64,000 nucleotides of DNA. It comes from an uncultured virus (IMG/VR IMGVR_UViG_3300007963_000001) (lineage: Duplodnaviria; Heunggongvirae; Uroviricota; Caudoviricetes). The stretch lies in IMG/VR virus record IMGVR_UViG_3300007963_000001. The stretch is one strand, 5' to 3'. This document shows positions 17,529-45,827 of this stretch, in pieces. The notes beneath the pieces are model-generated. The model searched no databases. It was not told the DNA's origin and was given only the letters and a program-made list of their open reading frames with translations. Within the stretch, counting starts at the first letter, position 1; each line of letters opens with the position of its first letter. Made by a program: the position numbers and the translations under genes.

Positions 17529-17529
17529 T

Positions 17530-18033
17530 TCAAGCCCCCCTTTCCATTTCCAAGTGAGGCATATTATCCCAATCCAAATCACGGCAGTTGAAGATTTTTT
17601 GTTTGCACCAATCCAATTCTTGCTCATTCCAACGGCTTCCTTCTCTCCTTTCTAAGTTCTCAGTTCCCTTAGCCCAAGCCAATCCTTCACCAGCCCACTT
17701 CTTCTCAGCACGACTGTTTTGTTTGGTAGCCTCTCCCAAATCGAAATGCCAAAAGTGAGGGTCGAAGATATCTCCATTTTCCAACTCAATCCAAAAGTGC
17801 CAGTTGCCGATGTTTCCGTTAGCGTGTTCCTTGAATCCGATTCTTCCCTCAATCAATTTCATCTGCTTTCTCTGACTCTTTGGGAAGGCCATAATCAACT
17901 TGGCGGCAGTGTTCCAACACCTGTTGGAAATGCAGACCAAGTTCTTCTTCTCAGCCATCTCATGCAAATCCCATTCTGTTATCACTATTTCAGGTGTTTT
18001 TTCGGTATGGCTTCGCTCAGGCTCGCGGGTCAT
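17530..18033 (-). CDS. Transglutaminase/papain-like fold protein (putative Cys-His-Asp)
   Basis: NRCWNTA ... HFWIELENGDIFDP; start at 18033 inferred from the class-I promoter. Confidence 0.55.
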   Translation of the reverse strand: MTREPERSHTEKTPEIVITEWDLHEMAEKKNLVCISNRCWNTAAKLIMAFPKSQRKQMKLIEGRIGFKEHANGNIGNWHFWIELENGDIFDPHFWHFDLGEATKQNSRAEKKWAGEGLAWAKGTENLERREGSRWNEQELDWCKQKIFNCRDLDWDNMPHLEMERGA

Positions 18034-18146
18034 AGACCCGCATGGGGAGGCCATCGGTATATCAATAGATTCTCAATCTCACTCTCATCATATATCAATA
18101 CCATAGTAAAATCGTCAATTTACTAACACGCCGAGCAACTTTATTT

Positions 18147-18422
18147 TCAGTCGGATTCTTGCGAAAACTCCGTGTCGAAATCGACACCCATCTCTTTCAA
18201 TTTCGACACAATCAAAATCAATTTTTCAGCATAGACAGATGCATCCATCAGTTCCTCTTGGTGATGGGTCAGCCACTCGACCAAACTCAGGTCGGTTCTA
18301 TCCATTGTCTTGTTGTCATACTTGAGTTCGGCATGACCACAATTCGGACACGGCTTCTTCTCTCTCGCTTGCTCTGCTCTCGCCTGTATCTTCTTGCATA
18401 CCTCATCCTCGATTTTGCTCAT
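18147..18422 (-). CDS. Small all-alpha NTP-pyrophosphatase (MazG-like) phage protein with a CPNC insertion
   Basis: KY...[26 protein letters not shown]. Confidence 0.65.
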
Positions 18423-19444
18423 ACTGTTATCCTCCTTAGAAATGTCTTGACCGTCAGCAGGTCATCCTGTGAAATCGAACACCAATAAATCGCTTCTCCG
18501 ATGTGCTTGTAAATCGCCCTTCGGAGTTTGTTGGGAACATTGGAATCGTTCTGAACTAAGGAATGAAATGCATCCAAAATCTCAACACCATTCATGCCCT
18601 TCTCGCCCATCATTTCAATCATGGAATCGAGTCGTCTGTGAGCCTTGAGATATTGGGCATCGCCAACATCATGCTTGTTGGATTCGATAGCCAATCCCAG
18701 CAGTTGCTTGAGTCCAGTTTCAGAAATCTCATTGGTCAATTCACGAACATCCTCGACCTCGACCCTGACTGGAATCCGAGTTGCTGAAAATAGCAGATTC
18801 AATGCGGAGCGCATTGAGCCGTTAGAAGCCTCTCCTACGGCCTTCAACGCATCCGGTGCTATATCGAGTCCTTCTTGCTCAACGATGGCCTTGAGAGCCT
18901 CGCAAATGGCCTCAGAAGGTATAGGTCTGAACCTTGAGCCTGAGAAAGCGCATCTATCCCTGATTGGTGCTATCACTTTGTTTGGATAGTTGCATGAGAG
19001 GATGAATCTTGTTTGCTTGGAATACTTCTCCATTATCCTTCTCAAAGCAGATTGAGCATCGGGAGTTAGATTGTCGCATTCATCCAAGAAAACCACATTG
19101 AAAGGAATCAATAATTCCCTGCCATCAGATGTCTGAAAAGTTCCAATCGTTCCTCTCCGAGCGAAGTCCTTGACTGTCGTTCTGACGACATTGATACTTC
19201 GTTCATCGCTCGCATTCAACTCGATGAAATTGGCTTTCCAATCTTCACCGAACATCGACTTCATCAGAGCCACTGCCACCGATGTCTTTCCAGTTCCAGC
19301 ACGACCTGCAAACATCATGTGCGGGAATCCAGCATCATCACCATCCTGATGCAATCTCTCGACTACGAATCTGAGCCTCTCGACTATGTGTTCCTGACCT
19401 ACGATATCATCCAGTGATTCCGGTCTGTATTTCTCCGACCACAT
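18419..19444 (-). CDS. rfcS: Replication factor C small subunit
   Basis: [40 protein letters not shown]. Confidence 0.95.
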
Positions 19445-19483
19445 TGAGTTGACTGGGTTAATCCCACCCTTATGAGGACAGCC

Positions 19484-19972
19484 TCACTCGTTGATTACTT
19501 TCTCGACTACATCAAACAACTCTGATACGATGTCGAATGATTGGTAAATCTTGTCTGCCTTCTCCCTGATGATATGCTCAGGAACTACTCTTGGCCTGTT
19601 TGCATTTCGTGTGATTGATGTGTCGATTCCGACAGTCACGAAAACCAGTCGTGTTGTCATTCCAGCCGCCCTTGCTGACTCGACATATCGGATGACTTTC
19701 TTGGAGTTAGTTCCTGTTGAGTCATAGACTGTGTTTGTTGGGTTGGAGAACGCCTCTTGCATCTGTGTTTCTGCAACTGCCTTTGACCAGTCGTGAATTG
19801 TCTGTGGGTTTAGTGGGTCGTAGTCAGGGTGAGTTTCCTTGATTGCATCACAGTCAACGAATGAGTGAGTGTCTGTGTATCGACCCTCTGCGACCCATGA
19901 CTTTCCAGCCGCAGGTAGCCCCATCATGACGACTAATTCGGGGGTCGCCGTGTTGTTCCCGTTGCAGTGCAT
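19484..19972 (-). CDS. P-loop kinase (AAA_33/zeta-toxin/PNK-like)
   Basis: GLPAAGKS, VYDSTG, RNANRPRVVP lid. Confidence 0.8.
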   Translation of the reverse strand: MHCNGNNTATPELVVMMGLPAAGKSWVAEGRYTDTHSFVDCDAIKETHPDYDPLNPQTIHDWSKAVAETQMQEAFSNPTNTVYDSTGTNSKKVIRYVESARAAGMTTRLVFVTVGIDTSITRNANRPRVVPEHIIREKADKIYQSFDIVSELFDVVEKVINE

Positions 19973-20052
19973 GGCACTGCAAGGAAGGCGTTCCCTATAT
20001 CAATGTTTAGGCAATATCACTACTTTTGGATATCAAAATTGCATTTTCTGAC
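19962..20052 (-). promoter_or_regulatory. Class-I promoter with start-codon hairpin
   Basis: GTCAGAAAATGCAATTTTGATA + ATTGATATAGGG + TTGCAGTGC-CAT-GCACTGCAA. Confidence 0.8.
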
Positions 20053-20915
20053 TACGCCGACACTCCGCTTTCATCCCGCAGAACTGAGAGGATTCTCTTG
20101 GCCGTGTCGAGTCCGATACCTTCGATTGACGAAAGTTCTTCGGGATTGGTCTGAGCGAGAGAAAGAATCGTTGGATATTTCGCAACTATTCTTCGCCTCA
20201 ATTTCGCACCCACCTTTGGCAATCCTTCGACAAGTGCATTTCGATATTCAATCGGGGTTGGAGATTTGGGTCGAGGCACATACAATCTTGGGTTATCATC
20301 CTCGACCTTCTGAACTATCTTGTGAACGAGCAACGATGCATCATGTCTGTTGTCAATGAACACTGGTGGATATCCAACGGCACACAACGATGCAATGAAG
20401 CCGATGAGTGTCTGCTCACTCACACCTCTATCTCTCGCACCCAGCCTGATTGCATCGTATGATTTCGACACTATCAGATACGAGTATTCTGCTTCCTCTC
20501 TCATCGCCCCCAATTGCTTGAGCCTACGCCCATCAAAGAGTGAGGGGAGAAAGTCATCTTCCTTCCTTTCGATGCTGACCTTTCGTGTCGATACATCACC
20601 CTTCCCAGTATCAAGACTGACTATCTCAAACCCAAGTTCAGATAGGTAGGTCAACATCTCTCGGTGTTCTCTGTGGTCGACTCTCCTGTGTCGAGTATGG
20701 AGTTCATTCAGAATCATCTGATTGATGAGAGTTAAAATCTGATTTTTTTCAGGACTTTCTGAGAGAGATTGCGTGTCGGTTTCGACAAGTTCCACAGTCA
20801 GGAATCGAGAGAATCCGAGCAGTTGTCCAAGCGATGCTGAATCAAGAAACTCGATAAGGTCTGAACGATTGTCCAACAACCTGCCATATCTTGTCTTTCT
20901 TTGATTACCTTTCAT
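20052..20915 (-). CDS. ERCC4/XPF (Hef-like) endonuclease with HhH motifs
   Basis: VDHRE, GD...IERK..DDF, LPKVG, IEGIG. Confidence 0.9.
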   Translation of the reverse strand: MKGNQRKTRYGRLLDNRSDLIEFLDSASLGQLLGFSRFLTVELVETDTQSLSESPEKNQILTLINQMILNELHTRHRRVDHREHREMLTYLSELGFEIVSLDTGKGDVSTRKVSIERKEDDFLPSLFDGRRLKQLGAMREEAEYSYLIVSKSYDAIRLGARDRGVSEQTLIGFIASLCAVGYPPVFIDNRHDASLLVHKIVQKVEDDNPRLYVPRPKSPTPIEYRNALVEGLPKVGAKLRRRIVAKYPTILSLAQTNPEELSSIEGIGLDTAKRILSVLRDESGVSA

Positions 20916-22092
20916 CAGGTTTCGACCATTTGCGTTTAATCTGACGGGGTTGATAATCCATGCCCCCCATGTCCTTGTATCGAGGACAGATATCACCTAC
21001 GCAACAACCGTTGGCCTTGAGTGTCGTGCAGTTAGGAAAGATGTGATACTTCGGGTCATCGAAGATAGTGGACATTTGGTATAGTCGATGTTCGGTGTTG
21101 TGTAGGTCGACATAACCAATCTCAGTTCCCAGTTGCATCCACACATTCTCAAACTCTTGCAGACTCATCCCAAGCATCTTGGCGAACAGGGCAGAATACA
21201 CTCTCGGTTTGTGTGGCGGATTCCTTCTCTTGAGTTCATTCACGACACCCATACATCTGCGGTTGAGAGATGCAATAAATCGAGAAGCACTTCCATCAGA
21301 AGAAGCGATGTCGAACTCGACATTCACAACTGGTCTAAGTAGGGATTTGGGGGAATGTAATTTCACACCCAACTCATTCACGAAATCAATCAATCTGAGT
21401 TTCCTTCCTGTGATAGTTGGAAGATGATATTTGGGTCGATATGACATCTTCTCGATGTCCTCATGGGTCAAGGTATCGAGATGTTCCACATCGACTGGAA
21501 GCGCGTGTCTGCCTGTTGAGTTCCCATGCCTGTCGATGTGCTTGGAAAATGGGAATCGACAGAGCCTCTTTGGGTCGCCTGTTGTCTGCTCATCGAGCGT
21601 GTTCAGACCGAGTGTTCTGCGTAGGTGGTCTTGCGTCTGATGCACTATCTGTTTCAGGGCTTCTCCACTACCATCCTTGAAGTCAAATCTAAATCGGGTT
21701 GGTGCATGAATGATGAACAGATGATATCCTTTGCTTCCACTATATTGAACCCAGTGTGCCACATCCATCTCCCTCAGATATGAGGACAATCTTTGGGCAT
21801 CAGCGAATGCATTTTCAGGCTTGGTGGAATGGTCGAAATCGAAGAATGTAAGTTCGTAAATTATCTTCTTTGGACTCTGCTTTCCACCCACCTCATATTG
21901 GAGATTATCATACCCACCAGTGCTGATGAAACAGGACTTGTTTCCATTCCATTTGGAGTATGACCTGAACACATCTTCTGTCGCATAGACAAAGTTCTGT
22001 CGAGGATTCCCTATGGCTCTTGGAAAGTGATTGAATCCAAAGTGATTACACATCTCATCAATGCTCTCAACTCTGAGCAACGACATCGACAT
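20905..22092 (-). CDS. Archaeo-eukaryotic primase: PriS fused to a PriL-type Fe-S C-terminal domain
   Basis: FFDFD, SGSKGYH, RLCRFP; then RRC...HKPR...YHIFPNC...CC...C. Confidence 0.88.
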   Translation of the reverse strand: MSMSLLRVESIDEMCNHFGFNHFPRAIGNPRQNFVYATEDVFRSYSKWNGNKSCFISTGGYDNLQYEVGGKQSPKKIIYELTFFDFDHSTKPENAFADAQRLSSYLREMDVAHWVQYSGSKGYHLFIIHAPTRFRFDFKDGSGEALKQIVHQTQDHLRRTLGLNTLDEQTTGDPKRLCRFPFSKHIDRHGNSTGRHALPVDVEHLDTLTHEDIEKMSYRPKYHLPTITGRKLRLIDFVNELGVKLHSPKSLLRPVVNVEFDIASSDGSASRFIASLNRRCMGVVNELKRRNPPHKPRVYSALFAKMLGMSLQEFENVWMQLGTEIGYVDLHNTEHRLYQMSTIFDDPKYHIFPNCTTLKANGCCVGDICPRYKDMGGMDYQPRQIKRKWSKPDER

Positions 22093-22095
22093 TCC

Positions 22096-22320
22096 TCATT
22101 CATCATCAATGACCGAGCGAAGGTTCTGCAACGCATCTTGGATGTGAGTTTTTATTCGTGATTCGTAGGCATGAGAAACTGATTCGTCTGTGATTCCAGC
22201 ATAGGCACAAAGCAGGTCAACTGAAACTATCAATTTGAGCATCAAGATATCTTCCTCTTTCATACCCAACATCCTCTCCGCATTGGTCACATCGAATGTG
22301 TTTTGATTTGGGTCATACAT
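22096..22320 (-). CDS. Hypothetical protein
   Basis: 74-aa ORF tightly packed in the replication operon. Confidence 0.7.
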   Translation of the reverse strand: MYDPNQNTFDVTNAERMLGMKEEDILMLKLIVSVDLLCAYAGITDESVSHAYESRIKTHIQDALQNLRSVIDDE

Positions 22321-22324
22321 ACTC

Positions 22325-23122
22325 TCAAGCCTCCCTCAGAGTTTCTGCCACTACGACCATCGCATCTCCATTTTCTATTACGATAAATGGAACTTCCTTG
22401 TGCTTGTATATGATGAACGAATCATCATCACATCGAGCAAGAACAGAAGCCAATATCTCAGCCAAATGAATCTCAACTTTCTCCCCCTCAACTACGGCTT
22501 CAATTGGTGTTGATGATTGGTTGGTCTTAGAACCCCAATGACCTGCTTCACAAAGCGACTTCTTCTTATCGAAGTTGAAGGAAATATACGGAGTCTTGGC
22601 GACTTTCATATCGACAATTCCTTGTGATAATGAATCCCTTGTAATGGTGATTTTTGTGGTGGCAGTTTCGTTATCTTTCTGTGGGAATTGAATCCAACCC
22701 TTCTTGTCTTTGGGCATTAACCATCTATCGGGAACGATAGCACAATCATCCTCATCAGCAGGGTGAAAGACGGACTTAGAACCAGCCTTATTCTGAATGA
22801 CAATTGGTTTGTTGGCATCAGTTGATATCTGCACAACTTGATTACCAAACTTGGTGTTCAATAGGTCTGAGAAACCTTCGGGGTCAATAAGCAAAACACA
22901 TGGTTCTTTGACCTTCAAATCATCAACATCTGAATTAGTAATCAACAAGTTCATTGTATTGGAAATATCATGTGTCCATACACTCATTCCATCATCTGTG
23001 AGAAGCACCCGAACTGGGCTGGCTGGCTTATCCATTACAACTCTCTTGAGAGCCTTAGACAGAGATGATGCGCTCGCCCTTGCAACTACTTTCCTTGACA
23101 CGATACTGTTCGGTGTTATCAT
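22325..23122 (-). CDS. Divergent PCNA-like sliding clamp
   Basis: 265 aa; VLLTDDGMSVWTHDISNTMNL resembles the PCNA N-terminal strands; RFC and a PolB PIP box are present. Confidence 0.7.
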   Translation of the reverse strand: MITPNSIVSRKVVARASASSLSKALKRVVMDKPASPVRVLLTDDGMSVWTHDISNTMNLLITNSDVDDLKVKEPCVLLIDPEGFSDLLNTKFGNQVVQISTDANKPIVIQNKAGSKSVFHPADEDDCAIVPDRWLMPKDKKGWIQFPQKDNETATTKITITRDSLSQGIVDMKVAKTPYISFNFDKKKSLCEAGHWGSKTNQSSTPIEAVVEGEKVEIHLAEILASVLARCDDDSFIIYKHKEVPFIVIENGDAMVVVAETLREA

Positions 23123-23218
23123 ATCCTTCGACTGGTTATCCCACCCTTATGATAGAATCGAAAATGAGTATGTCGGTTGGTGAAGGAAAAGTTGTGTCAG
23201 TTTTGACAAAAAAATCTC

Positions 23219-23590
23219 TCAACGAGATTTCTTGCCTGTCGACTTCGACACATCATCGTAAGCATCTGAACGAGCCAGCCAAGTTTTCTGAGGATATTTT
23301 GTGCGACCATCAAGACCAGCAACTTTTGATTCTCCAGCACAGAAGAACAGATGTGGTTTCTTGGCGAGATGATTCGTCAATCTGTGTATTTCAAATGGTT
23401 GCTTGGGCAACTGCACAATCTCTCCAGTTGTGAGTGGTTCGCCGTCAGGATAGATAGCACCTGCGGCAATCAATGCCTTCCACAAACGCTTCACATTTCG
23501 ACCATCGGTTTTGCCCATTCGACCAAACTTACGAGTGCCGTATTTGGATGACGGAACTTCCCTATCTTTGGACTTCTCAGGCTTCCCCAT
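23219..23590 (-). CDS. Basic, possibly winged-helix DNA-binding protein
   Basis: K/R-rich; GEPLTTGEIV...RLTNHLAK. Confidence 0.6.
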   Translation of the reverse strand: MGKPEKSKDREVPSSKYGTRKFGRMGKTDGRNVKRLWKALIAAGAIYPDGEPLTTGEIVQLPKQPFEIHRLTNHLAKKPHLFFCAGESKVAGLDGRTKYPQKTWLARSDAYDDVSKSTGKKSR

Positions 23591-25705: not shown

Positions 25706-26880
25706 TCTTCCCAGTCATCATCGTCATCTTCGGATTCGGTAGTTGGTGTTTCTTGCGTATCGGCTTCGACAGTTTCTTCCTCAACTTCTGCTTCTTCTTC
25801 CTCGCCATCGTCAGCATCATCTGTTGCCTCAACAACATCTTCTGTGGAGTCGTCATCGTCATCGTCATCGTCATCCCCGATTGTCTTGATATCTGTCGTC
25901 TTGAAGTAGTCAGCCGCATCGTCATCGTCATCATCAGCAACAGAGGTTTCTGCGACTGGTGGTGCAACTGTGATTATACCGATTGCAGTTTCAACATTTG
26001 CAGACAATCCATACTCTCCATTGTCCTTCGTGGTGAGCAACGCAAGGATGCGGCTATACTTGCCGAATCTTGATGCGATGGATGTTGATGTGATACAATT
26101 GAGAAGCAGGTTTTCTCCACTCTCAATCGCTTCCATAGTCATCGTGGAATCATCCTTGAGAAGCATCTTCCCAAACTGTGAACCAGCCCTGCTATTCTGC
26201 ACACCCGCATACGATACAGTAGCCTCAACCAAACGGTAGTCAGTTGGACTTCTGCTGATGTCGTCATCTAAGTCTGCGATAGGTGAGATATCGAACATTG
26301 ATTTGAGCAGTTCCTTTCTGTCGGTGTGTTCGTATTCCTCAGTGTTGAATGATGTGATTCCTGATAATGGTCGTAGGTCAAGAACTTCTGCATCGAGATT
26401 GAGGCAAGACACACTCAACGAGTATGTTCCATCTGCCTCCACATCATCAGCGATAGCAGTATCTCCATCCCAAAGACTCATCCTGAAAAGTGCTGTGTCC
26501 ATCACGCTTCCATCTGTGTCCTCAACGATTGCTTGGCCTATCATGAAACACGCTGGTCGAGGGTTGCCCTTTGCAATCCCAACTGTCCTGTGAGATACCT
26601 CATACAAGTCGATGTGAGCAGTGTATCGCTTCTGTCGTAGGATGCTTGTCAAGTCAATGAGAACTGCGTCTGTGCAGAAGGATTGAGCGAGTTCTGATTT
26701 CATTCCACCGAGAGCATCAATTTGAGGCTTGTTGGTTGGGTCTTTTGCGAACTTCGCAAACATCTGAATCACAGTGGAATCATCAGTAAAGATTCCCTTT
26801 GAAATCCCACTCTCTATGAATGGGCGCAATCTCTTTTCAGCATACTTCGGCAGTTTCTTCGGTGTCGTTTTGGCAGACAT
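25699..26880 (-). CDS. Putative single-stranded DNA-binding protein (OB folds, acidic tail)
   Basis: FRMSLWD OB-like motif; long D/E tail ending DDDDDWEDW. Confidence 0.7.
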   Translation of the reverse strand: MSAKTTPKKLPKYAEKRLRPFIESGISKGIFTDDSTVIQMFAKFAKDPTNKPQIDALGGMKSELAQSFCTDAVLIDLTSILRQKRYTAHIDLYEVSHRTVGIAKGNPRPACFMIGQAIVEDTDGSVMDTALFRMSLWDGDTAIADDVEADGTYSLSVSCLNLDAEVLDLRPLSGITSFNTEEYEHTDRKELLKSMFDISPIADLDDDISRSPTDYRLVEATVSYAGVQNSRAGSQFGKMLLKDDSTMTMEAIESGENLLLNCITSTSIASRFGKYSRILALLTTKDNGEYGLSANVETAIGIITVAPPVAETSVADDDDDDAADYFKTTDIKTIGDDDDDDDDDSTEDVVEATDDADDGEEEEAEVEEETVEADTQETPTTESEDDDDDWEDW

Positions 26881-26923
26881 ATTTCTTATCCTGTTTTCCC
26901 ACCCTTATCAAAGGTAGGTGGGA

Positions 26924-29230: not shown

Positions 29231-30396
29231 GCAAAGTTCTTCCTGATTTTCTCAATGATTGCAACTTGCTTTGGAGTTAATTCCTGACCCATGATTACTC
29301 TGAGTCTGACGGACTCGCAGAAGTTCCTCTCCCATGTGTTGAGTTGCCTCAGACTGCCTGACCATGCAATGTCCTTTTCGACAGTCAACCACTGGTTTAT
29401 TTCAGATGCTAATTCCGGTATTTCAACCGACTCAGGATTGTGCTTCAAATCGTATTTCGTCATGACCTCTTGTTGGAATCTCTTGTAGCCACCATATATC
29501 CTGTGTTGACCGAGAAGCCTGATTTTTCGTTCTGTCTTTACAGCCATGTTTTTCTCCCAGCCGTTAAGGTCATTCTCCAACTCATTACACACTCGTATGA
29601 AAGCGTCTGCTTCCTTGCCCCATTCGTTCCTCAATTCAGCCATCTTCTGAGCCATTTCTGTCTGCCTCTTTTGGTGTTCTTCTGCGGCCTTTCTCCGTTG
29701 CTCTCGATACTCTGAAAGCCTCTGTGAATACTCCTGATATTCTTGCTCGGCAGTGAGCATGAACTCATCCCACTGTCGAGATAGTTTTGGACTCGGATAT
29801 CCATGTGAGATTAGACGCTTGACCATGTTCCTGTGAATTGCTCTCCACAGTTTCTTGCGAGGGTCACTACGAGCAAAGAATTGATTCTCCGCCATCATCC
29901 CCTGAAACCTCTCTAAGTCAGACAAAACTGATGGGTATTTCTGAGTGAATGTTTTCTTGTTGAATTGGTGTCTTGCTTCTTTCATATTGGTCTTGAGATA
30001 TTCCTTCTTCTCATCACCATCTAACACCTTCCCATTGACCTCTATTTCGACATAGCGATACACGCATACATTGCCAACCATAATCTCCCTATCAGCCACA
30101 TCATCATGCAAGATACAGTTCTCAACTATTGGGTGCTTCCCACATAGCGCACAGGTATCTCTTTGACCATAGACAGACTTGGTGTATTTCCAATCAGACT
30201 TGAAGTCGTTGTATGGTCTAATCGAACCCACATCAGAAACTATCCGAGATACTTTGGCGAGGCTGATTACCTGACGCTTCACAGTTCCACTCGTTCCTTC
30301 CGCCAATGCCTCATACAACTCGGCTGGCATCTTACCTGCTTTTGCTTGACGACCCCACCTGTGGGCTTGTCTAACTAACACCGCATCCTGTTCCAT
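29227..30396 (-). CDS. Zinc-finger/coiled-coil protein
   Basis: CALCGKHPI...VGNVC; C-terminal F..S...G..LTPKQ module. Confidence 0.75.
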   Translation of the reverse strand: MEQDAVLVRQAHRWGRQAKAGKMPAELYEALAEGTSGTVKRQVISLAKVSRIVSDVGSIRPYNDFKSDWKYTKSVYGQRDTCALCGKHPIVENCILHDDVADREIMVGNVCVYRYVEIEVNGKVLDGDEKKEYLKTNMKEARHQFNKKTFTQKYPSVLSDLERFQGMMAENQFFARSDPRKKLWRAIHRNMVKRLISHGYPSPKLSRQWDEFMLTAEQEYQEYSQRLSEYREQRRKAAEEHQKRQTEMAQKMAELRNEWGKEADAFIRVCNELENDLNGWEKNMAVKTERKIRLLGQHRIYGGYKRFQQEVMTKYDLKHNPESVEIPELASEINQWLTVEKDIAWSGSLRQLNTWERNFCESVRLRVIMGQELTPKQVAIIEKIRKNFA

Positions 30397-30485
30397 ATCA
30401 TCTCAGGATTCACCCACCGTTATCAACAAAACTATCTTGGTGTCGAACTCGACATTCGACCACTGAAAAAACGATGCTCGGCGCA

Positions 30486-30577
30486 GTCAGAAAATGCAAT
30501 TTTGATACCCAAAACCATTGATTTTCGGGAATCATTGATATAGGGGAAGCCCTGCGTAGGTCATTACATGACCTACG
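30486..30577 (+). promoter_or_regulatory. Class-I promoter with start-codon hairpin
   Basis: 22-mer identical to the reverse complement of 20031-20052, ATTGATATAGGG, CGTAGGTCAT-TAC-ATGACCTACG. Confidence 0.8.
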
Positions 30578-30993
30578 GGGATAACACACGAAGAACACCA
30601 AACCTACACCCACACGCTCTGCAAAGAGTGGATGAGAGGCTTGTCGGAGATGAAGCACAAAAGGTAATCTCGGCAGTCAAGAAAGCCTGTGCAAAGTATG
30701 GAAGCAAGTCAATCGGAATCATCGCTCACGACATCGGCGCACAGAGAGGCCAAGCATGGGGCGCAAAGAGCAACGGCAACATGGTAGTCGTCATAGTCAG
30801 GCATGGACAGGTCAAGACTGTCTATCTCCGAAGGGCAACTCAGACATTCGACCTCTCGGTATCTCGCACCGACACTCTCGTTGATATGACTGGCCGTGTC
30901 CTGTCGAACCCGATACGCCGCAATCCTCACGGTGGCCGCAGAAATGGTCGCCGTGATGAGCCACGAAACATCTTCGCAATGAGGGGGAACTGA
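30568..30993 (+). CDS. RelE/DUF4258-like putative RNase-fold protein
   Basis: HALQRVDER...VVIVRHGQVKTVY. Confidence 0.55.
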   Translation: MTYGDNTRRTPNLHPHALQRVDERLVGDEAQKVISAVKKACAKYGSKSIGIIAHDIGAQRGQAWGAKSNGNMVVVIVRHGQVKTVYLRRATQTFDLSVSRTDTLVDMTGRVLSNPIRRNPHGGRRNGRRDEPRNIFAMRGN

Positions 30994-30995
30994 AT

Positions 30996-31235
30996 ATGAA
31001 AATCATAATCTCAAACTGTGTTGTCGGATGTGATGCAAAAACCAATCTCAGAATCGTTGAATATGCACAGGGCAGAAAGCACCTTTGCCCTGTGTGTGGA
31101 GAGGAATGTTTGGCAACAATAGTCGGCAGTAAGAGCAACGAGTTTGAAATCAAATATCTTGGAAAGGAACAGTGGACAATCTCAGAGTTCTCGGCGTTTG
31201 CCGAAGCATGGGGAATGACTAACTGGGGGAACTGA
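30996..31235 (+). CDS. Small zinc-binding protein
   Basis: CVVGC...CPVC; preceded by gggaactgaatATG. Confidence 0.65.
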   Translation: MKIIISNCVVGCDAKTNLRIVEYAQGRKHLCPVCGEECLATIVGSKSNEFEIKYLGKEQWTISEFSAFAEAWGMTNWGN

Positions 31236-31237
31236 AT

Positions 31238-31612
31238 ATGAAAGCAACACGACAATACAAGAACGAAAAAACAGGAATTGAATACGAAAGAACGCCAAAG
31301 ATTGACCCTGAAAATCTGAACTTCGCATTCGGAACAAGGAGAGTCCACATTGTAGTGGATATCGCTGAGTATGCACAGAAGTATGCTGGCTGGAAGAATG
31401 AAGATGGAACATGGGAAATTGAACCATCAATTGACTGGTATGCAAGTGCAAGAGTTGCTTGCGGCCACTACCGAAGTGCAACTGGTCGCATCACCTTCGA
31501 CCAATACAACGGTGCAGAGAAGGATGCAAAAATATGGAATGACCGCCCTGAGATGCGATGCGAACACTGTGTCGCAATGCTTAGAGTTGCTAACAGAAAG
31601 AACACTAACTGA
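31238..31612 (+). CDS. Hypothetical protein
   Basis: 124 aa; CGH...CEHC; same gggaactgaatATG junction. Confidence 0.65.
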   Translation: MKATRQYKNEKTGIEYERTPKIDPENLNFAFGTRRVHIVVDIAEYAQKYAGWKNEDGTWEIEPSIDWYASARVACGHYRSATGRITFDQYNGAEKDAKIWNDRPEMRCEHCVAMLRVANRKNTN

Positions 31613-33344: not shown

Positions 33345-33366
33345 AGCCTACGATTTTACCCCCACC

Positions 33367-33464
33367 GATATGAATAGAGCCGTTCTGCGGCCACCATTTG
33401 TATTTCAGGTCAATACCTACCACCAATAGAAAAGACACGCTTAGAACACCACTATTTTGATATC
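33367..33464. repeat. Dispersed ~90-bp element, copy 3
   Basis: gatatgaatagagccgttctgcggcc...caggtcaatacctaccac...ttttgatatc. Confidence 0.7.
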
Positions 33465-39766: not shown

Positions 39767-41970
39767 CAGATAACACCCCTCGCACCACGATATGAGTCCT
39801 TGACAATCTTAGGCATTTCAGTTCTGATAATTGACCTTACATCACTACTTGTCATGTGTCCACCTCCGTTGATGGTAATACTGTCAAAATTGATGGTTAA
39901 TCCACTATTCGATGAGGACACTCCCATAGGTGAAGATTTCTTAGTCAATTCCATATCGTATTTGGTCAATGGAACGAGTGCTTCTCGACCTGCCTCACCG
40001 AAGATACCTGCCGTTGGGTTGTCTGTGATACCACCCGCATGAAACTCATTCGCCACCCCGCCAATTCCACCAGCGAGCGCACCAATACCTGCACCGATTC
40101 CAGTTCCGACAACAGGAACGGCTGAACCAACAACCGCACCACTTGTTGCACCCACAAACATATCACTCAAAATACGCCCCCACCAAGAATCTTCTGCGGC
40201 TTCAAACAGGTCTGCTATTTTTTCCAATAGCCAAAATACAGGCTTCATAAGAGTGCCGAGAATCTTCATCGCATTTGCGAATGCTTTGATGAATGGAACT
40301 GCCAATCGGAATGCTACCATTGCCCTGTCAACAAACGAAGGTAATCCAGCAATAAGTGGCAAGAGGTCATCTGCAATTGCATCTCTCAGTTCAATCCACT
40401 CATCCTTGTTGTCTGCGAGGGTGTATGCAACATTCTTGAGAGATGATGCAATCTTGCCGTCATTAGCCGAAGCAAGACCAATCAGTTCGGCAAATAATTC
40501 CCCGACAACAATCCTCGTTTCTTCAAACGCTGAGATGACTTGTTTGATTTGATAATCCACAGTTTGCTTCACGGTTTTCAGATAACTTTCTGTCGCCCCC
40601 TCTGCGAGATAATTGGCTTCAACAAGGTCAAGGAATCCTTGCCTCTGACCCATCAAAGCCATGATTGCAGTTCCACCACGAACAGAGAAGATTTCCAGTA
40701 TCTCTGCGGTAGTTGCACCTGAGTCTGCAAGTTGATTTACCACATCGCTCAGTGAGGTCAAACCCATTGTCTGAGAAGTGACTACTTCGTTGAGTGAATT
40801 GTATTGTTTCTCTTGCTCTGCGAGGACTTTGTTTTGCTTCTTTGCATCTCTCTGAGCAATCCGTTGTTTGAGTGACACACTGAACTGCTCAACAGATAGT
40901 GCTTGATTTGCTTCCTCTAACTTTTGGATTCTCTTGATTTCATCTGCCGTGAGTTGTCGACCCTCGCGGTCTGCTCTTGCACGAATCTGCATAATGGCGA
41001 GTTGGTTCTTCTGTTGGTCAATTGAAATATCATCTAACTTTCCATTCAGAATATCCATTGCCGCAGATGTTTTCTCAACTTGTGCTTTCATACTGCCTAT
41101 CGAAGTCGACAGGCCAACCATTGTATTTCTCGCAGATTCTCCGGCTGGAGTCAAAGTCAGGAAGTTCAAACCGAGTCTATCCATGACTCGCCTTGCATCA
41201 TCTGTCGGACTCAACAACTTGTTGATGGACATACGCAGACCTGTGCCAGCGATAGTTCCCTGTAATCCCGCGTCACCGAGCGCACCCACTGCCGCCGCCG
41301 CTTCCTCGATTTCAAGACCCGCCGCATTAGCAGTTGGGGCAAGAAACTTCATCGCCATTCCGAGAGTTGTCAGGTCAACGAAAGATGAGGTCATGGTTGT
41401 GACGAATACATCCATCACTCTGTCCATATCTTCAATCGCAATGCCCATACCTTTGACACTGGAAATTACAATTCCAGCCGCAGATTCGACATCAACACCA
41501 GCAACCACCGAGAAGTCAACAAGACTCTTGATTGCACCTTCTGTTTCATTACCTAATTCTTCAAATCGCAGACCTGCTAATGCAAGGACATTTCCAGCCC
41601 TTGCAACCTCTGATGCTGTCGCCTGAGATTCTTTTGCAATGTTGCGAATAACCATCTCAAGGTCTTGCATTGACTCATTGATTTCTCCGGTTTCTCGATT
41701 GGTTTCACCGAGAGTCGCGGCCATCCTTGCCATAGCAAGTTCAAACTCAACGAAAGTAGTGACTGATTTCTTGAGATATCTGAAAGTCAAAGCCACACCA
41801 AGAGTAGCCGCCGCTATTGTTGCCTGAGCCATTCTTTTGCCTATCTTCGCCAAATCGAGGCTGATGGATTTGCCGGATGCTTCTGATGCCGCCGCACCAG
41901 CCGCCATCGCATTTTGCAGACCCTTTGAATCACCGTCAATCAGAACAGCCATTCGGACATCTTGAGCCAT
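39766..41970 (-). CDS. Tail tape measure protein (TP901-like core)
   Basis: LGDAGLQGTIAGTGLR, helical composition, hydrophobic stretches, FHAGG...GEAGREALVPL. Confidence 0.92.
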   Translation of the reverse strand: MAQDVRMAVLIDGDSKGLQNAMAAGAAASEASGKSISLDLAKIGKRMAQATIAAATLGVALTFRYLKKSVTTFVEFELAMARMAATLGETNRETGEINESMQDLEMVIRNIAKESQATASEVARAGNVLALAGLRFEELGNETEGAIKSLVDFSVVAGVDVESAAGIVISSVKGMGIAIEDMDRVMDVFVTTMTSSFVDLTTLGMAMKFLAPTANAAGLEIEEAAAAVGALGDAGLQGTIAGTGLRMSINKLLSPTDDARRVMDRLGLNFLTLTPAGESARNTMVGLSTSIGSMKAQVEKTSAAMDILNGKLDDISIDQQKNQLAIMQIRARADREGRQLTADEIKRIQKLEEANQALSVEQFSVSLKQRIAQRDAKKQNKVLAEQEKQYNSLNEVVTSQTMGLTSLSDVVNQLADSGATTAEILEIFSVRGGTAIMALMGQRQGFLDLVEANYLAEGATESYLKTVKQTVDYQIKQVISAFEETRIVVGELFAELIGLASANDGKIASSLKNVAYTLADNKDEWIELRDAIADDLLPLIAGLPSFVDRAMVAFRLAVPFIKAFANAMKILGTLMKPVFWLLEKIADLFEAAEDSWWGRILSDMFVGATSGAVVGSAVPVVGTGIGAGIGALAGGIGGVANEFHAGGITDNPTAGIFGEAGREALVPLTKYDMELTKKSSPMGVSSSNSGLTINFDSITINGGGHMTSSDVRSIIRTEMPKIVKDSYRGARGVI

Positions 41971-41975
41971 TTTTT

Positions 41976-42161
41976 TCACTTCCTTCTTGCTCTCTCTCTC
42001 GCTTGTTTTTCACGCTCTATTTTCTCGGCAAACGCCGACCAAAGAAACAAAGAATCTCTTGGGTCTAACTCTCGCCACTCTTGAGGGGTTATTCCGATTT
42101 CGGTCAGAATGTGGAATAGAAATTGACCTTCGTTTGTTTTCGCATAATTCAGGACTTTCCC
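41976..42161 (-). CDS. -1 frameshift extension of the tail assembly chaperone (gpGT-like)
   Basis: Slippery GGGAAAG at 42161-42155; -1 frame reads GKVLNYAKTNEGQFLFHILTEIGITPQEWRELDPRDSLFLWSAFAEKIEREKQARERARRK*. Confidence 0.8.
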   Translation of the reverse strand, partial: GKVLNYAKTNEGQFLFHILTEIGITPQEWRELDPRDSLFLWSAFAEKIEREKQARERARRK

Positions 42162-42484
42162 AGCGCACCTTCTGTTGGCGAACCAACTGCGCTGGTGACT
42201 CTGACAGCCAACTCACCGAGCAAAGACATTGGGAGTTGTCTGAACTTATTCCAAGACAATGTTTCATCACACTTGGAGAGCATCTCATAGACGACTCGCA
42301 ATCCAAGTAATTCATTCCTATCTTCACCTGACAATCTTGCAATTTCAGGCTCAGATTTGAGGATTTGGAACTCGTTTGCAGAGAGGGGCTTTGCTTGTAA
42401 TGTCTTGATGCCAAGTCCGATGCCTTCGACATCAACATCAATCGGGTTATTTGCTTGCTCAATTGCGGAATCCAACCATGACAT
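42149..42484 (-). CDS. Tail assembly chaperone (gpG-like)
   Basis: Between tail tube and tape measure; ends ALGKS at the slippery site. Confidence 0.85.
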   Translation of the reverse strand: MSWLDSAIEQANNPIDVDVEGIGLGIKTLQAKPLSANEFQILKSEPEIARLSGEDRNELLGLRVVYEMLSKCDETLSWNKFRQLPMSLLGELAVRVTSAVGSPTEGALGKS

Positions 42485-42554
42485 ACTTTTGGCCTCTCTG
42501 TGTGGTCAAAAGTCGTAGCCCCACCGTTATGAAGGAAGTGGTTAGAGGCGATGC

Positions 42555-42950
42555 TCAAGCATCCCTCGACCAATTCAATCCCTCAAATGAGGCGTTAATC
42601 ATCAAAGCACCTTCTGAACCTGCTTCAAGCCCTTCAACTGATAGGTCTGTGAGGACACAAGTTATGGCAGTGTAGGTGTGTGTTCCAGCACTGTCAGAAT
42701 CGAATGCGATATCGAACTCTGCATCTGTGTTGAACCATGTGTAAAGGGTCGAGTCAGATATTCCCCATGCTCTCTTGAGAGTGCCTGAAACTGCTTTCAA
42801 TCCTCTTGTGTGCGCGGTTGCTGTATTTCCACCCAAAGTCGTGTATTTGCCCGTTGCAGTTGCAAGTGTCAAGTCGCCACTAACGAAGCCCACTACATTC
42901 CCTGATGCGGTTATTTTTCCAGTGACTCCTGTAAATGAGTGAACTGCCAT
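42555..42950 (-). CDS. Major tail tube protein
   Basis: 131 aa, beta-rich; position upstream of chaperone and tape measure. Confidence 0.8.
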   Translation of the reverse strand: MAVHSFTGVTGKITASGNVVGFVSGDLTLATATGKYTTLGGNTATAHTRGLKAVSGTLKRAWGISDSTLYTWFNTDAEFDIAFDSDSAGTHTYTAITCVLTDLSVEGLEAGSEGALMINASFEGLNWSRDA

Positions 42951-42969
42951 GAACCCAAAGGCAGTTGTC

Positions 42970-42988
42970 GGGGATATTAACTGAATCG
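42970..42988 (-). promoter_or_regulatory. Class-III (structural gene) promoter
   Basis: CGATTCAGTTAATATCCCC, identical 19-mer at 50116-50134. Confidence 0.7.
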
Positions 42989-42995
42989 GTTAGAC

Positions 42996-43313
42996 TCACT
43001 TCTTCTGTTTAGCCCGTCTTTCCTTCTGCAATCTATCAATCAATGCCTTCGATTTTACCTTCCCATCCTTCGGGTCAATTTGAAGATACCCTGCCCTTCT
43101 TCCATCTTGTCTTTCCAACTCACACAAATTACACCTGTGGTCGGAATCCTCAGTGTGTAATTCAGCCCCCATATTGGTTAATTCTGAAACGAATCTTATC
43201 CGAGAATCTCCCTGTGGAAAATCGACTGGAATGATGCACCTGAGATTGTGGTGTTCACACTTGCATCTCCACTTCTTTCCACAGGACACAGCCTTCTTGA
43301 TTTTCTTGCTCAT
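42996..43313 (-). CDS. Basic Cys/His-rich protein
   Basis: CKCEHH...C...HRCNLC. Confidence 0.7.
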   Translation of the reverse strand: MSKKIKKAVSCGKKWRCKCEHHNLRCIIPVDFPQGDSRIRFVSELTNMGAELHTEDSDHRCNLCELERQDGRRAGYLQIDPKDGKVKSKALIDRLQKERRAKQKK

Positions 43314-43316
43314 ATC

Positions 43317-44672
43317 TCACATCCCCAGTGTTGCGTGTCTGCCCAGTGGGTGTTTGGTAGTTGCGGCTTTTCTGAGAATCCTTTCTGCTTGGTCAACTAT
43401 GACTTCCCAATCGAGATTTTCCACTGCGAAATCTCTCGCATTCCTTCCAAGTTCTTCCACGATTTCAGGATTATCAATTGCAGATTGCATCGCAAGTTGT
43501 AGGGCTTCGATATCGACCAGCCCCATATTGACTGACCACTTTCCACCGCAAATCGAAGTCACGCATTTCACCAACCATCCCCTGTCGGCTTCGACAACCT
43601 CTTGCCCATCTGCCAGTTTTCCACCAGTGAGTTCTGACCCAGTGCTATTATCGGGCAGAATGATTGGGATTCCAGTGGACATTGCTTCTGCACTTGGAAC
43701 TCCAAATCCTTCTCCACCAGTAGCCAACACATGAACATCTGAAACTGCATATACCATAGCCAGTTCTTCTCTGCTCAAACCCATCAGTGGATTGTTGCCT
43801 TTGTCTGTGAACCGAACATTATCCAGCAAGTCCATCTGCCTGAGAGTTAATGGCAAATCCCAGCCACCCATTCCCATCGTATCGGTAGCATCTCCACAGT
43901 GGATTAGAAGTCCTATTGAATTGGGGTCATCTGCCTCATCGAGAAGATTCCTAAATGCTTGCAGAAGTCTTGGTATCTGTTTTCGATTTGTGTTGCGGCC
44001 AACAGAGGAAAAAATGAACTTCCAATGGGGGATTCCGAACTTCTCCTTGATGACTTCCTTCTGTTCTTCCGATATAGGGGCAAATACAGGCGTATCAACG
44101 CCGTGTAGTAGCACTTCCCCTCCCTTACCCCTATATCGGTCAAGGAGAGGCTCTCGTAGCGTCTTAGAGGCATTTCCTCCACTGTGGTAGTCATCAATGA
44201 AGTCTGAGAATACCTCTTTTCCAAAATTAGCCATCCAAAGGGGCGTGTGAAGCATCTTGAGGACATCTTTCCAAGCGTAGGATATTGGATATCCGTCAAT
44301 CGGCATATAGGCAACATAGGGAATCTCCATACGATTTGTGCTGACCACTGACGAACCGATATAGAACGGGTCGTTGAGTGTGAAATAGAGGTCGGGCTTT
44401 AGTCGCATCAGATGGTATTCCAAGACTGTCGGGCTTTGGTCGCCACTGAGCCTCTCAGCACCATATCCTGAGATGCCAGCATGAACCATTGTCCAACCTT
44501 CTTCGTGCTTGAAATCCTCGCCATTGTAATCCCAACCCATGATGAAAACTTCGTGTCCTCTCTCGACTAATCTCTTGCAGATTTCTCTTGTCACCGTTCC
44601 ATATCCAGTTGGCCTTGTTGGTTGCTCTGAACCCCACAGGATTCTGAGTTTCTTGTCTGTCGACTTCGACAT
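43317..44672 (-). CDS. GT-B glycosyltransferase (GT4-like)
   Basis: PTGYG, HGVD, VGRNTNRK, GEGFGVPSAEAMSTG. Confidence 0.92.
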   Translation of the reverse strand: MSKSTDKKLRILWGSEQPTRPTGYGTVTREICKRLVERGHEVFIMGWDYNGEDFKHEEGWTMVHAGISGYGAERLSGDQSPTVLEYHLMRLKPDLYFTLNDPFYIGSSVVSTNRMEIPYVAYMPIDGYPISYAWKDVLKMLHTPLWMANFGKEVFSDFIDDYHSGGNASKTLREPLLDRYRGKGGEVLLHGVDTPVFAPISEEQKEVIKEKFGIPHWKFIFSSVGRNTNRKQIPRLLQAFRNLLDEADDPNSIGLLIHCGDATDTMGMGGWDLPLTLRQMDLLDNVRFTDKGNNPLMGLSREELAMVYAVSDVHVLATGGEGFGVPSAEAMSTGIPIILPDNSTGSELTGGKLADGQEVVEADRGWLVKCVTSICGGKWSVNMGLVDIEALQLAMQSAIDNPEIVEELGRNARDFAVENLDWEVIVDQAERILRKAATTKHPLGRHATLGM

Positions 44673-44716
44673 AATTTTGGTGGGCAGTTCCCACCGTTAT
44701 GAAATGCTGGATTTTC

Positions 44717-44753
44717 AAAAAAAAAAAGGAGAGCCGCCATCAGGCGACCCTCC
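44717..44753 (-). terminator. Hairpin plus T-tract terminator
   Basis: minus strand ggagggtcgcc-tgat-ggcggctctcc-T11. Confidence 0.75.
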
Positions 44754-44789
44754 AGTTTTGATTGGGTGTAAGACCCCTAATTTTCCATC

Positions 44790-45032
44790 TCAATAGATAC
44801 CAGCGAGTTCTCCCCCAGTCATGGTAGCCCCATCGTGCTTTCCGCCGTTTCCATCTCCACACATCCAACCCGAAGGTGCGAGGTAAATGATGTAGCGGCA
44901 GACAACTGCCTTCACCAAATCTTCTTGACGGAAATCGTCAAGGAAAATGTATGCCTGTATAACAGTCAAATCCCGTAGGTCTTTCCTCTTTGTCATCCAT
45001 GCTATTGCTTCATTTTTTCTGTCGTTATTCAT
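44790..45032 (-). CDS. Hypothetical protein (accessory cassette)
   Basis: 80 aa; GGAG RBS within the direct repeat. Confidence 0.7.
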   Translation of the reverse strand: MNNDRKNEAIAWMTKRKDLRDLTVIQAYIFLDDFRQEDLVKAVVCRYIIYLAPSGWMCGDGNGGKHDGATMTGGELAGIY

Positions 45033-45343
45033 TTTTTCATCTCCTTTTTTTCATTTCATTTCTTGGTGGAATCAGTATAGTGTGACATACCGAATATACA
45101 CACCCCACTTGCCGTTTGACACTTGCTTTACAATCGCTCGGCAAACTTGCCCGTTGTGTTCTTTTCCTGTTCCGCACTGTCGAATCATGGATGCTTCATT
45201 CTTGGCTTCGTGCTTGTAATCGAATGCGAATCGAAGGGTATATTCGTAGCCACGAAACTCGGTGTGATAATCTTCGTCTGTGTATTCTGTTGTGTTCATT
45301 TTTTCATCTCCTTTTTTCATTTCATTTCTTGGTGGAATCAGTA
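45028..45343. repeat. ~50-bp direct repeats (45028-45077, 45295-45343) flanking one gene
   Basis: ttcattttttcatctcctttttt(t)catttcatttcttggtggaatcagta occurs twice. Confidence 0.9.
45072..45299 (-). CDS. Hypothetical protein (accessory cassette)
   Basis: MNTTEYTDEDY...; start lies in the repeat. Confidence 0.7.
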   Translation of the reverse strand: MNTTEYTDEDYHTEFRGYEYTLRFAFDYKHEAKNEASMIRQCGTGKEHNGQVCRAIVKQVSNGKWGVYIRYVTLY

Positions 45344-45745
45344 GTTCCCATAGACCGCATAGCAGTGGGTGATTTTTCGTGAATCTCTCTGTCGTGGGTC
45401 GGTGTCGGTGTGGGTAGTTCCGTCAGGTAGTGTTAGGATGACATGACCATCGACTCTGATGATGTAGCCAATGATTACTCCAACTGTGTCTGTTGCAGAT
45501 ACCTTTGCGAGAGTCTTTCGTGCGCCACCGACTGACTTGCCCTTGACCTTTGACATTCGGCTTCTTACTGTGTATGTGGTTCGTGCGGCTCGCACTAAGT
45601 CGGAGATTGTGTGTAGGTATCGGACTTGGTGAGCGACTCCGAGAGCCTTTGCAACCTCAAGAGCGCAGATGTTCTTGTTGTTGTTCTCAGGGTTGTTGCT
45701 TCCGCCCTTGTAGTAGTCGCGTAGTTGCTTTGCTGTGTAGGTCAT
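45338..45745 (-). CDS. Possible papain/C39-like small protein
   Basis: NICALEVAKALG...YIIRVDGHVI...DG...TDTD. Confidence 0.55.
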   Translation of the reverse strand: MTYTAKQLRDYYKGGSNNPENNNKNICALEVAKALGVAHQVRYLHTISDLVRAARTTYTVRSRMSKVKGKSVGGARKTLAKVSATDTVGVIIGYIIRVDGHVILTLPDGTTHTDTDPRQRDSRKITHCYAVYGNY

Positions 45746-45827
45746 GTAATGACCTACGCGGGGCTTCCCCTATATCAATAGATAGGGTAAATCAATGGTT
45801 TTTCCTCTCAAAATTGTGTTTTCTGAC
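45737..45827 (-). promoter_or_regulatory. Class-I promoter with start-codon hairpin
   Basis: GTCAGAAAACACAATTTTGA, ATTGATATAGGGGAAGCCC, GTAGGTCAT-TAC-ATGACCTAC. Confidence 0.8.

Follow-up and report, generated by a model that had tools for sequence, protein, structure and literature searches.

Four operons of small genes in a 64-kb stretch of DNA from an uncultured tailed virus (IMG/VR record IMGVR_UViG_3300007963_000001, a partial genome, hereafter the window) begin with a perfect palindrome that lies across the start codon and is preceded by the box ATTGATATA. The question raised by these sites is what a palindrome can do in such a position and whether it acts there as DNA or as RNA. The analysis revealed that the palindrome belongs to one type of promoter, keeps a fixed place behind the box and changes both arms together in related viruses. 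The explanation judged to be the best, though it is held tentatively, is that the palindrome is a translational lock of the T4 lysozyme type adapted to leaderless mRNA.

Palindromes and cassettes of the window

All four palindromes which a sequence-only reading of this DNA had reported behind a common box were recovered at the coordinates given there (P18k, P20k, P30k and P45k; Table 1). Counted from the A of ATTGATATA, the loop centre lies at 33-34 and the ATG starts at 33-35, either inside the loop or where the 3' arm begins, and the gap from the box to the ATG is 23-25 nt. The 64 kb contain nine perfect hairpins having a 3-nt loop and a stem of at least 7 bp, and three having at least 9 bp. 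These three are exactly three of the promoter sites, and the fourth site, P18k, has a 7-bp stem at the same distance from its box. The background in the window amounts to 7-10 hairpins with a stem of at least 7 bp for each loop size from 1 to 8, and two for loop size 0. Perfect hairpins of at least 9 bp with other loops number none for sizes 0-2, 4 and 8 and one each for sizes 5, 6 and 7. None of the four window sites has a T-run after the 3' arm, as an intrinsic terminator would.

Alignment of the four regions showed that the palindrome is the last part of a cassette of about 100 nt, in the order TCGGCG, two nucleotides, the GTCAGAAAA box, a second TTGAT-type box, ATTGATATA, a G-run...GCC spacer and the palindrome. 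The window holds five copies of ATTGATATA against 0.40 expected, a number reached in none of 100 shuffles. The 20-nt GTCAGAAAA box is found three times against 0.08 expected, at P20k, P30k and P45k. The claim of the sequence-only reading that three sites share an upstream box is in accordance with this count, while the cassette, extending to TCGGCG, is longer than had been noted. The second box (box 2) is located 17 nt upstream of the proximal box; at P18k a perfect second ATTGATATA (18091-18099), the fifth copy of the window, lies 33 nt upstream of the proximal copy on the same strand. A start from this upstream copy would yield a longer RNA carrying an in-frame ATG (18052-18054) and the whole hairpin.

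Geometry in related viruses

The sample of relatives consisted of eight IMG/VR contigs (G001-G008) obtained by protein-guided and pattern-guided searches, one of them an 80.6-kb genome with terminal repeats, and five more distinct metagenome fragments. At the cassettes (window 20016-20036 and 30436-30595) the public assemblies of related viruses are broken or diverge, as is expected for repeats, and the contigs of four DNA sequencing runs yielded no usable variants in the stems. A search of sequencing runs brought up no RNA run containing the virus. The window and the relatives together gave 81 distinct NTTGATAWR sites, and each was scored by the best perfect stem centred at position 28-37. 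The stem lengths were bimodal, with 7-11 bp at 26 sites and at most 6 bp at the other 55; random positions reach a 7-bp stem at a rate of 0.0064. In all 26 palindrome sites the centre lies at 32-34 and the ATG falls in the loop or in the opening bases of the 3' arm, starting at position 32 in one site, 33 in six, 34 in thirteen and 35 in six. The loop is of 3 nt in 21 of these sites, 2 nt in three, and 0 nt and 4 nt in one each.

A cassette-like upstream pattern matched 20 of the 26 palindrome sites and none of the 55 others, elucidating that the palindrome is bound to the promoter type and not to the genomic context. A metagenome scan for the upstream pattern was used as a blind control and gave 39 hits. 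Nine of them carried a palindrome (8-11 bp), all nine with the exact 42-nt box spacing, and the remaining 30 had stems of at most 5 bp. The 3-nt loops read pyrimidine-A-pyrimidine in 20 of 21 cases (16 of 17 distinct versions). The loops are TAT, CAT, TAC, AAC and TTC on the sense strand and ATA, ATG, GTA, GTT and GAA on the template strand. Cassette and palindrome were both absent from 19 loci of distant relatives, whose family B DNA polymerase (PolB) is 54-61% identical and which were screened also for imperfect stems.

Stem diversity and covariation

The 26 palindrome sites represent 20 distinct stem/loop versions from about eight unrelated sequence families; examples of stems are TTGCAGTGC, TTGTCGCTC, GCGGGTC, CTGCTCTCGC, CCTGCTGGCTC, CCTTGCGGCTC, CTTGCTCAT and GTGGCTCAT. 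The sequence-only reading had described the structure as conserved and the stem sequence as variable. This description is strongly confirmed in the relatives, but within the window the stems of P30k and P45k belong to one sequence family, which leaves three independent stems.

The pairing was analysed in two gap-free alignments, which held nine sequences apiece and differed in the register of the ATG against the loop. The 11-pair helix was 89.9% and 87.9% paired. Shuffled partners gave 66.1% and 74.9%, and none of 500 shuffles reached the observed values, although these shuffle figures overstate the significance because the aligned sequences are related. Partners slid by 1-3 columns were 22-39% paired, and the two-sided (compensatory) changes that had been proposed as a check on orthologous promoters were found at 7 of 11 and 5 of 11 pairs. 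Relatedness does not affect the slid controls or the many two-sided changes. Among the inner eight pairs all 144 cells pair, 142 of them as Watson-Crick pairs and two as T.G, both from one pair of P18k-type orthologs. The counting of sense G.T against A.C as a means of discriminating RNA from DNA was uninformative, as the stems are essentially all Watson-Crick. The G001 ortholog (77k) has its stem lengthened through a T.G pair, which is C.A on the opposite strand. The first non-pairs beyond the stems mostly reflect C-rich 5' and A-rich 3' flanks. The 3' arm codes for residues 1-4 (MTY, MSH, MSK, MSQQ, MHC, MSD, MTR etc.) and the non-coding 5' arm tracks it. These alignments point to selection on the pairing.

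Predicted start site and hairpin-free promoters

An ATG that opens an open reading frame (ORF) of at least 60 aa was present at position 32-35 of 22 out of 76 distinct NTTGATAWR sites, compared to 2 out of 44 for the reversed motif. Because such an ATG stands there even at hairpin-free promoters, the ATTGATATA-type box, judged by its spacing, behaves as the TATA box of the clade. Leaderless mRNAs are common in archaea, and a box centre about 27 nt before the ATG is the archaeal arrangement for them. The box-ATG spacing and the initiator-like pyrimidine-A step in the loops suggest a start at the central A of the loop or 2 nt later; the promoter's own RNA would therefore be leaderless and would not contain the 5' arm.

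A further class of promoters (class II) is commoner than the cassette class in the window. It has a TATA-like octamer (TTGATAAG, TTCATAAC, TCATAAGG and similar) with GGTGGGA directly after it and no palindrome, and it precedes PolB, RFC, a glycosyltransferase, a helicase and others. An ORF-opening ATG follows 22-24 nt after the first G at 11 of 37 GGTGGG sites of the window, compared to 1 of 26 in the reversed control. Both comparisons support the earlier suggestion that archaeal TATA spacing puts the start near the ATG, and many large genes appear to have a leaderless promoter of their own. The same box-ATG spacing was found in the relatives with PolB 54-61% identical, which lack cassette and palindrome. 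The internal genes of operons use Shine-Dalgarno-like GGAG/GGGG. In two relatives (L070 5907-5970 and L077 4900-4971) a leadered promoter of the TAGTCAGA type carries a hairpin of 5-6 bp, TTGCG-AAAACA-CGCAA, which ends 1 nt before GGAG and has the predicted start inside its 5' arm.

A proposed promoter-coupled translational lock

The proposed lock brings together the palindromes, their fixed position, the covariation, the box-ATG spacing and a contrast in folding. In silico, the RNAs extended at the 5' end enclose the AUG in the helix at all four window sites, with folding energies of -19.5 to -27.5 kcal/mol (z -3.3 to -4.7), whereas the RNAs beginning from the AUG reach -2.1 to -5.1 kcal/mol (z -1.4 to +0.6) and are essentially unstructured. 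In the mechanism envisaged, the host TBP, TFB and RNA polymerase would use (A)TTGATATA as the TATA box and would start where the 3-nt centre of the palindrome has its pyrimidine-A step, on the A of the ATG or 2 nt before it. The mRNA begun at this promoter would have the 3' arm only (codons 1-4) and a free 5' AUG. An RNA begun further upstream would also carry the 5' arm, which would fold onto the first codons and bury the AUG in a perfect helix of 7-11 bp. The long RNAs may arise by read-through from the preceding co-directional gene or by starts at TATA-like boxes in the cassette, and the small accessory genes would be translated only when their own regulated cassette promoter fires. What the model predicts beyond these observations is where transcription starts, that longer RNAs exist and how translation responds to them.

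Long RNAs with both arms are expected at three of the four window sites, because a co-directional gene runs into the cassette and no T-run of at least 5 lies between the two at P18k, P20k and P45k. The tight geometry would follow from lack of room, since the box-to-start interval is of 23-25 nt and about half of it is conserved G/C spacer; the 5' arm can be placed only directly before the start and the 3' arm only from the ATG. The sequence-only reading had argued that a leaderless mRNA lacks the 5' arm and that the palindrome hence acts as DNA. The predicted mRNA does lack this arm, but RNAs begun upstream would contain both, and the conclusion does not follow. Its proposals that the hairpin assists opening and that the genes are immediate-early likewise found no support in the present data. 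An extended RNA pairing of the spacer with the coding region, seen in the P20k fold, was set aside as it is not clearly kept by the paralogous cassette.

Weighing of the explanations

Several observations weigh against the lock. The predicted start is placed by spacing alone, and class II promoters are also located behind co-directional genes. The use of GGAG/GGGG by internal genes means that an internal AUG without a Shine-Dalgarno sequence may be weak even when no lock is present. An RNA-only helix is expected to tolerate more G.U than the near-exclusive Watson-Crick pairing seen here. The P30k-type locus is divergent and has no co-directional upstream gene, yet the palindrome is kept with different stems in five records (the window, G003, G006, G007 and G008); read-through from an upstream gene is therefore not the whole story there, and long RNAs at P30k would need the cassette's own upstream TATA-like boxes or stray transcription. 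The last two observations also favour a role of the palindrome as DNA at the start site, which includes the proposal of the sequence-only reading and is a possible but doubtful explanation. In one version a supercoil-driven cruciform exposes or blocks +1 as a topology-dependent switch, and in the other a hairpin of the non-template strand, formed once the initial bubble spans about -12 to +12, affects promoter escape. The palindrome would then be a promoter DNA element, and a TBP/TFB-dependent archaeal polymerase would start in the loop of a hairpin or cruciform at +1 or use the non-template hairpin from -12 to +12, a formulation for which we have similarly limited confidence. The centre is fixed at the predicted +1 in all 26 sites, even where stems of 7-8 bp could shift, and the arms extend at most about +/-12, the early transcription bubble being of about +/-12. 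Watson-Crick pairing throughout nearly all the stems allows both DNA strands to fold, and the folding energies of the DNA hairpins, whichever the strand, are -7.6 to -10.3 kcal/mol (z -3.8 to -7.1). Moreover, every match of the cassette-like upstream pattern has the palindrome. On the other side, the hairpin-free class II promoters with the same spacing indicate that a hairpin is unnecessary for leaderless initiation, the T.G extension in G001 would be C.A on the other strand, and we know of no TBP/TFB-type polymerase that uses a hairpin at +1. The available extracts of a review on phage N4 (PMC4496689) bear on both sides: hairpins of 5-7 bp with 3-nt loops can extrude at physiological superhelicity, but a hairpin of the N4 kind placed inside a host promoter abolished the activity of that promoter. 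The special loop and closing bases required for N4 extrusion are absent from the present sites.

The remaining explanations received little weight. Leadered mRNAs, begun upstream of the 5' arm at box 2 or right after the box, would turn the hairpin into a plain stem at the 5' end of the RNA, serving to stabilise it or to gate translation. This is improbable: box 2 is TATA-like in some cassettes (ATTGATTT, ATTGATATT, and the perfect second ATTGATATA of P18k) and the main hairpin has a small predicted G-run/C-run stem immediately on its 5' side, but only the proximal box is invariant, the ATG distance of 32-35 is the same in promoters without box 2, several cassettes have the non-TATA TAGTCAGAT in its place, and an AUG in a helix of up to -27 kcal/mol would require an opener. 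It is quite improbable that the palindrome is a processing signal, with long RNAs cleaved by an endonuclease at the pyrimidine-A step of the loop to give leaderless, translatable mRNAs. The pyrimidine-A-pyrimidine loops suit such a cut, which before the A would leave AUG or ACAUG ends, but the same step is equally expected of an archaeal initiator. Archaeal operators usually take the form of palindromes that overlap start sites, and the position would suit dimeric repressors. The existence of 20 stem/loop versions, with three unrelated stems in one genome and no shared half-site, the joint change of both arms at orthologous sites and the coincidence of the conserved positions with those set by the ATG and a Ser or Thr codon make operators very unlikely. 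A functionless by-product of template switching or cassette insertion might explain why the arms are perfect and the cassettes modular, with shuffled genes behind them; it can hardly be reconciled with the bimodal stem distribution and with stems kept at the same position over eight sequence families and diverged orthologs, and was given as little credence.

Comparison with known systems

In phage T4, long early RNAs sequester the start region of the genes e (lysozyme), soc, 49 and I-TevI, and late promoters in the DNA encoding the 5' strand yield translatable RNA, according to the extracts of PMC3014915 at hand. By analogy, the palindrome is best filed as a variant of this promoter-in-hairpin translational lock. 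As in T4 as described there, the start region would be in a helix of the upstream-begun RNA, a temporally regulated promoter would lie in the DNA encoding the 5' strand so that its own RNA cannot fold, and a subset of genes only is concerned. Unlike the T4 locks in those extracts, the present element has an archaeal host and a predicted leaderless mRNA, with the AUG itself and not a Shine-Dalgarno site in the 3-nt loop; its arms are perfect and abut the start site, it is part of a repeated cassette of about 100 nt, and it is known from sequence alone.

The sequence-only reading had likened the palindromes to the early promoters of phage N4. In the part of PMC4496689 consulted, these have a hairpin centred at -11, a conserved GC-rich heptamer, a loop with 5'G and 3'A and a C:G closing pair, and are read by a virion polymerase of 3500 aa with gyrase and SSB. 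The resemblance to that account lies in short inverted repeats of similar size with 3-nt loops and in a stem identity that is partly free provided the pairing holds; the differences are a predicted centre at +1, pyrimidine-A-pyrimidine loops and unconserved stems. An N4-like start 11 nt downstream of the centre would delete the start codon. The N4 loop rule (template 5'G/3'A) is satisfied by the GTA and GAA loops, at 8 of the 21 sites with 3-nt loops, but these are closed by T:A; the C:G closing pair occurs only at ATA and ATG template loops, and no site has both features. The analogy failed on the predicted hairpin position and on the loop and closing-pair rules, and no dedicated polymerase was found. 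PF00940 (T7-like polymerase) gave no match in five related records including one complete genome, a search in which the control genomes were silent too. The ORF 2-6211 (-), of more than 2070 aa and extending beyond the window edge, was considered as a virion polymerase and ruled out, since it repeatedly matched PHROGs of the tail-spike and virion structural kinds and matched no PDB sequence.

The nearest archaeal-virus precedent for the cassette idea, and not for the start-site palindrome, is the halovirus HGTV-1. The extracts of PMC3950731 describe in it a conserved intergenic motif with a TATA-like stretch plus an inverted repeat, likened to the T4 PeSL cassettes; as in the window, a repeated promoter and inverted-repeat module stands before small ORFs in an archaeal tailed virus and is tied to gene shuffling. 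The repeat in the HGTV-1 record is fixed in sequence and precedes the ATG by about 89 nt; of 30 upstream regions inspected, 16 contained its core. Unlike the present palindromes, it is neither on the start codon nor gene-specific. The box centre about 27 nt before the ATG and the pyrimidine-purine step at the predicted start agree with canonical archaeal BRE/TATA leaderless promoters, from which, as from the virus's own class II, the cassettes differ by the palindrome over the start. Full-text literature searches gave no description of start-site-centred palindromes in archaeal viruses.

To our knowledge, little is known about how leaderless translation follows promoter choice in dense, read-through-prone viral genomes. 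If the lock is true, translation would be tied to the RNA start in a very compact manner, by a complement of the first codons that is specific to each gene. If the DNA role is true, the cassette would be a new kind of promoter for archaeal or eukaryotic-type transcription machinery, gated by DNA topology, and the first structure-dependent promoter for a multisubunit archaeal or eukaryotic-type polymerase. Under either reading, about 20 natural stem variants with fixed geometry are a ready-made mutational series, and the cassette marks the accessory-gene modules of an uncultured viral clade.

Genes around the cassettes

Each window cassette heads a short operon of 1-3 small ORFs. The next large gene after the cassette operons (PolB, RFC or glycosyltransferase) carries its own hairpin-free class II promoter, and the label of accessory genes given by the sequence-only reading therefore fits. 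The 162-aa P-loop kinase of the P20k operon matches Zeta_toxin/AAA_33 in Pfam, with weak PNK matches in PDB; the other first-gene products had no Pfam, PHROG or PDB assignment. The coordinates of the features are summarized in Table 1.

Table 1: Positions and composition of promoter elements, palindromes and operons in the window
Feature	Position	Strand	Composition
Palindrome P18k	18025-18041	-	GCGGGTC-TAT-GACCCGC; ATG 18031-18033
Palindrome P20k	19962-19982	-	TTGCAGTGC-CAT-GCACTGCAA; ATG 19970-19972
Palindrome P30k	30555-30577	+	CGTAGGTCAT-TAC-ATGACCTACG; ATG 30568-30570
Palindrome P45k	45737-45757	-	GTAGGTCAT-TAC-ATGACCTAC; ATG 45743-45745
Cassette P18k	18025..18134	-	TCGGCG 18129-18134; extra upstream ATTGATATA 18091-18099; TATA-like ATTGATATA 18058-18066; G/C-rich spacer
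Cassette P20k	19962..20060	-	TCGGCG 20055-20060; 20-nt GTCAGAAAA box 20033-20052; ATTGATATA 19996-20004
Cassette P30k	30478..30577	+	TCGGCG 30478-30483; 20-nt box 30486-30505; box 2 ATTGATTTT (TATA-like) 30517-30525; ATTGATATA 30534-30542
Cassette P45k	45737..45835	-	TCGGCG 45830-45835; 20-nt box 45808-45827; ATTGATATA 45771-45779
P18k operon	17530-18033 and 17004-17627	-	two ORFs
P20k operon	19484-19972	-	P-loop (PNK/zeta-like) kinase, 162 aa
P30k operon	30568-31612	+	three small ORFs
P45k operon	44790-45745	-	three small ORFs
Class II sites	16980-17010, 19445-19477, 23123-23155, 26881-26912, 30397-30427, 33345-33376, 44673-44705	-	octamer and GGTGGGA
Class II example	26880..26912	-	TTTGATAAG and GGTGGGA; ATG 26878-26880 starts at position 33
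Class II example	30394..30427	-	GTTGATAAC and GGTGGGT; ATG 30394-30396, position 32; back to back with P30k
Palindrome-free related promoter	58275..58346	+	TAGTCAGA box and ATTGATATG; leader and GGAG before ORF 58334-58705
CobT palindrome	11054-11066	-	GCCCC-GTA-GGGGC; abuts the CobT-like ATG, wholly upstream of it

The upstream genes reach into or close to the cassettes. At P20k the TAG (20052-20054) of a Hef/XPF-like gene falls in the cassette between TCGGCG and the box, at P45k the TGA (45808-45810) of a small ORF forms the last three bases of the 20-nt box, and at P18k the TGA of the co-directional ORF 18147-18422 sits 13 nt before TCGGCG. The ORF 45808-46098 (-), directly upstream of P45k, reads by eye as HNH-type nuclease-like (CxxC ... 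HH ... CxxCH) and had no Pfam or NCBIfam match. P30k stands in a divergent context, back to back with the class II promoter 30394..30427 (-). Between the two, at 30442-30471, six T (30466-30471, - strand) are followed by a hairpin (30442-30460, -) of 6 bp with a 7-nt loop, GTCGAA...TTCGAC; this segment is a candidate stop for - strand RNAs crossing the inverted three-gene module. Its counterpart on the strand of the cassette, TGA with an A-run, is seen again at the 5' border of several cassettes, and at P18k the upstream gene ends on this TGA. In G004 (L080 6960-7100) an extra small ORF with its own matching palindrome lies after the cassette and before the ortholog of the 30568 gene, which suggests cassette-mediated shuffling of accessory genes, as proposed for the T4 PeSLs.

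Gene content of the window

The window encodes an archaeal-type replication module and has a GC content of 44-50%. The best tblastn matches of its PolB in the phage collection were the haloarchaeal tailed viruses HVTV-1, HCTV-1 and HCTV-5, at 23-24% identity over 87% of the protein, and a nucleotide search of the same collection with the window sequence gave no match. The clamp-loader ORF scored 300.9 bits on the archaeal 'replication factor C small subunit' model, for which the cut-off is 303. The other replication genes code for a Hef/XPF-type nuclease with HhH domains, a PrimPol-like protein, an XPD/DinG-like helicase and a PD-(D/E)XK nuclease; a CobT-like VWA protein and an AAA_5 ATPase are also present, and the virion genes comprise portal, prohead protease, capsid, tape-measure and terminase. 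Neither tRNA genes nor Rfam matches at gathering score were found in the 64-kb window. By its predicted products, the gene set resembles that of the replication-rich archaeal tailed viruses termed magroviruses in the extracts of PMC5434244, a likeness that does not imply membership; the words promoter, hairpin, palindrome and TATA are absent from the available text of that paper.

Palindrome of the CobT-like gene

The sequence-only reading had grouped with the four sites a further palindrome that abuts the ATG of the CobT-like gene. This palindrome exists, but its features differ: there is no ATTGATATA, it follows the different TATA-like box TTATATCA, and its core CCCCGTAGGG is conserved as sequence, without covariation, in four of five orthologous CobT upstream regions. 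On this comparison it is a separate, sequence-conserved element outside the cassette class. The upstream region 11054-11142 (-) has, besides the CCCCGTAGGG core, a conserved GGTAAAGTCTGACTAAA block, and both are common to the relatives.

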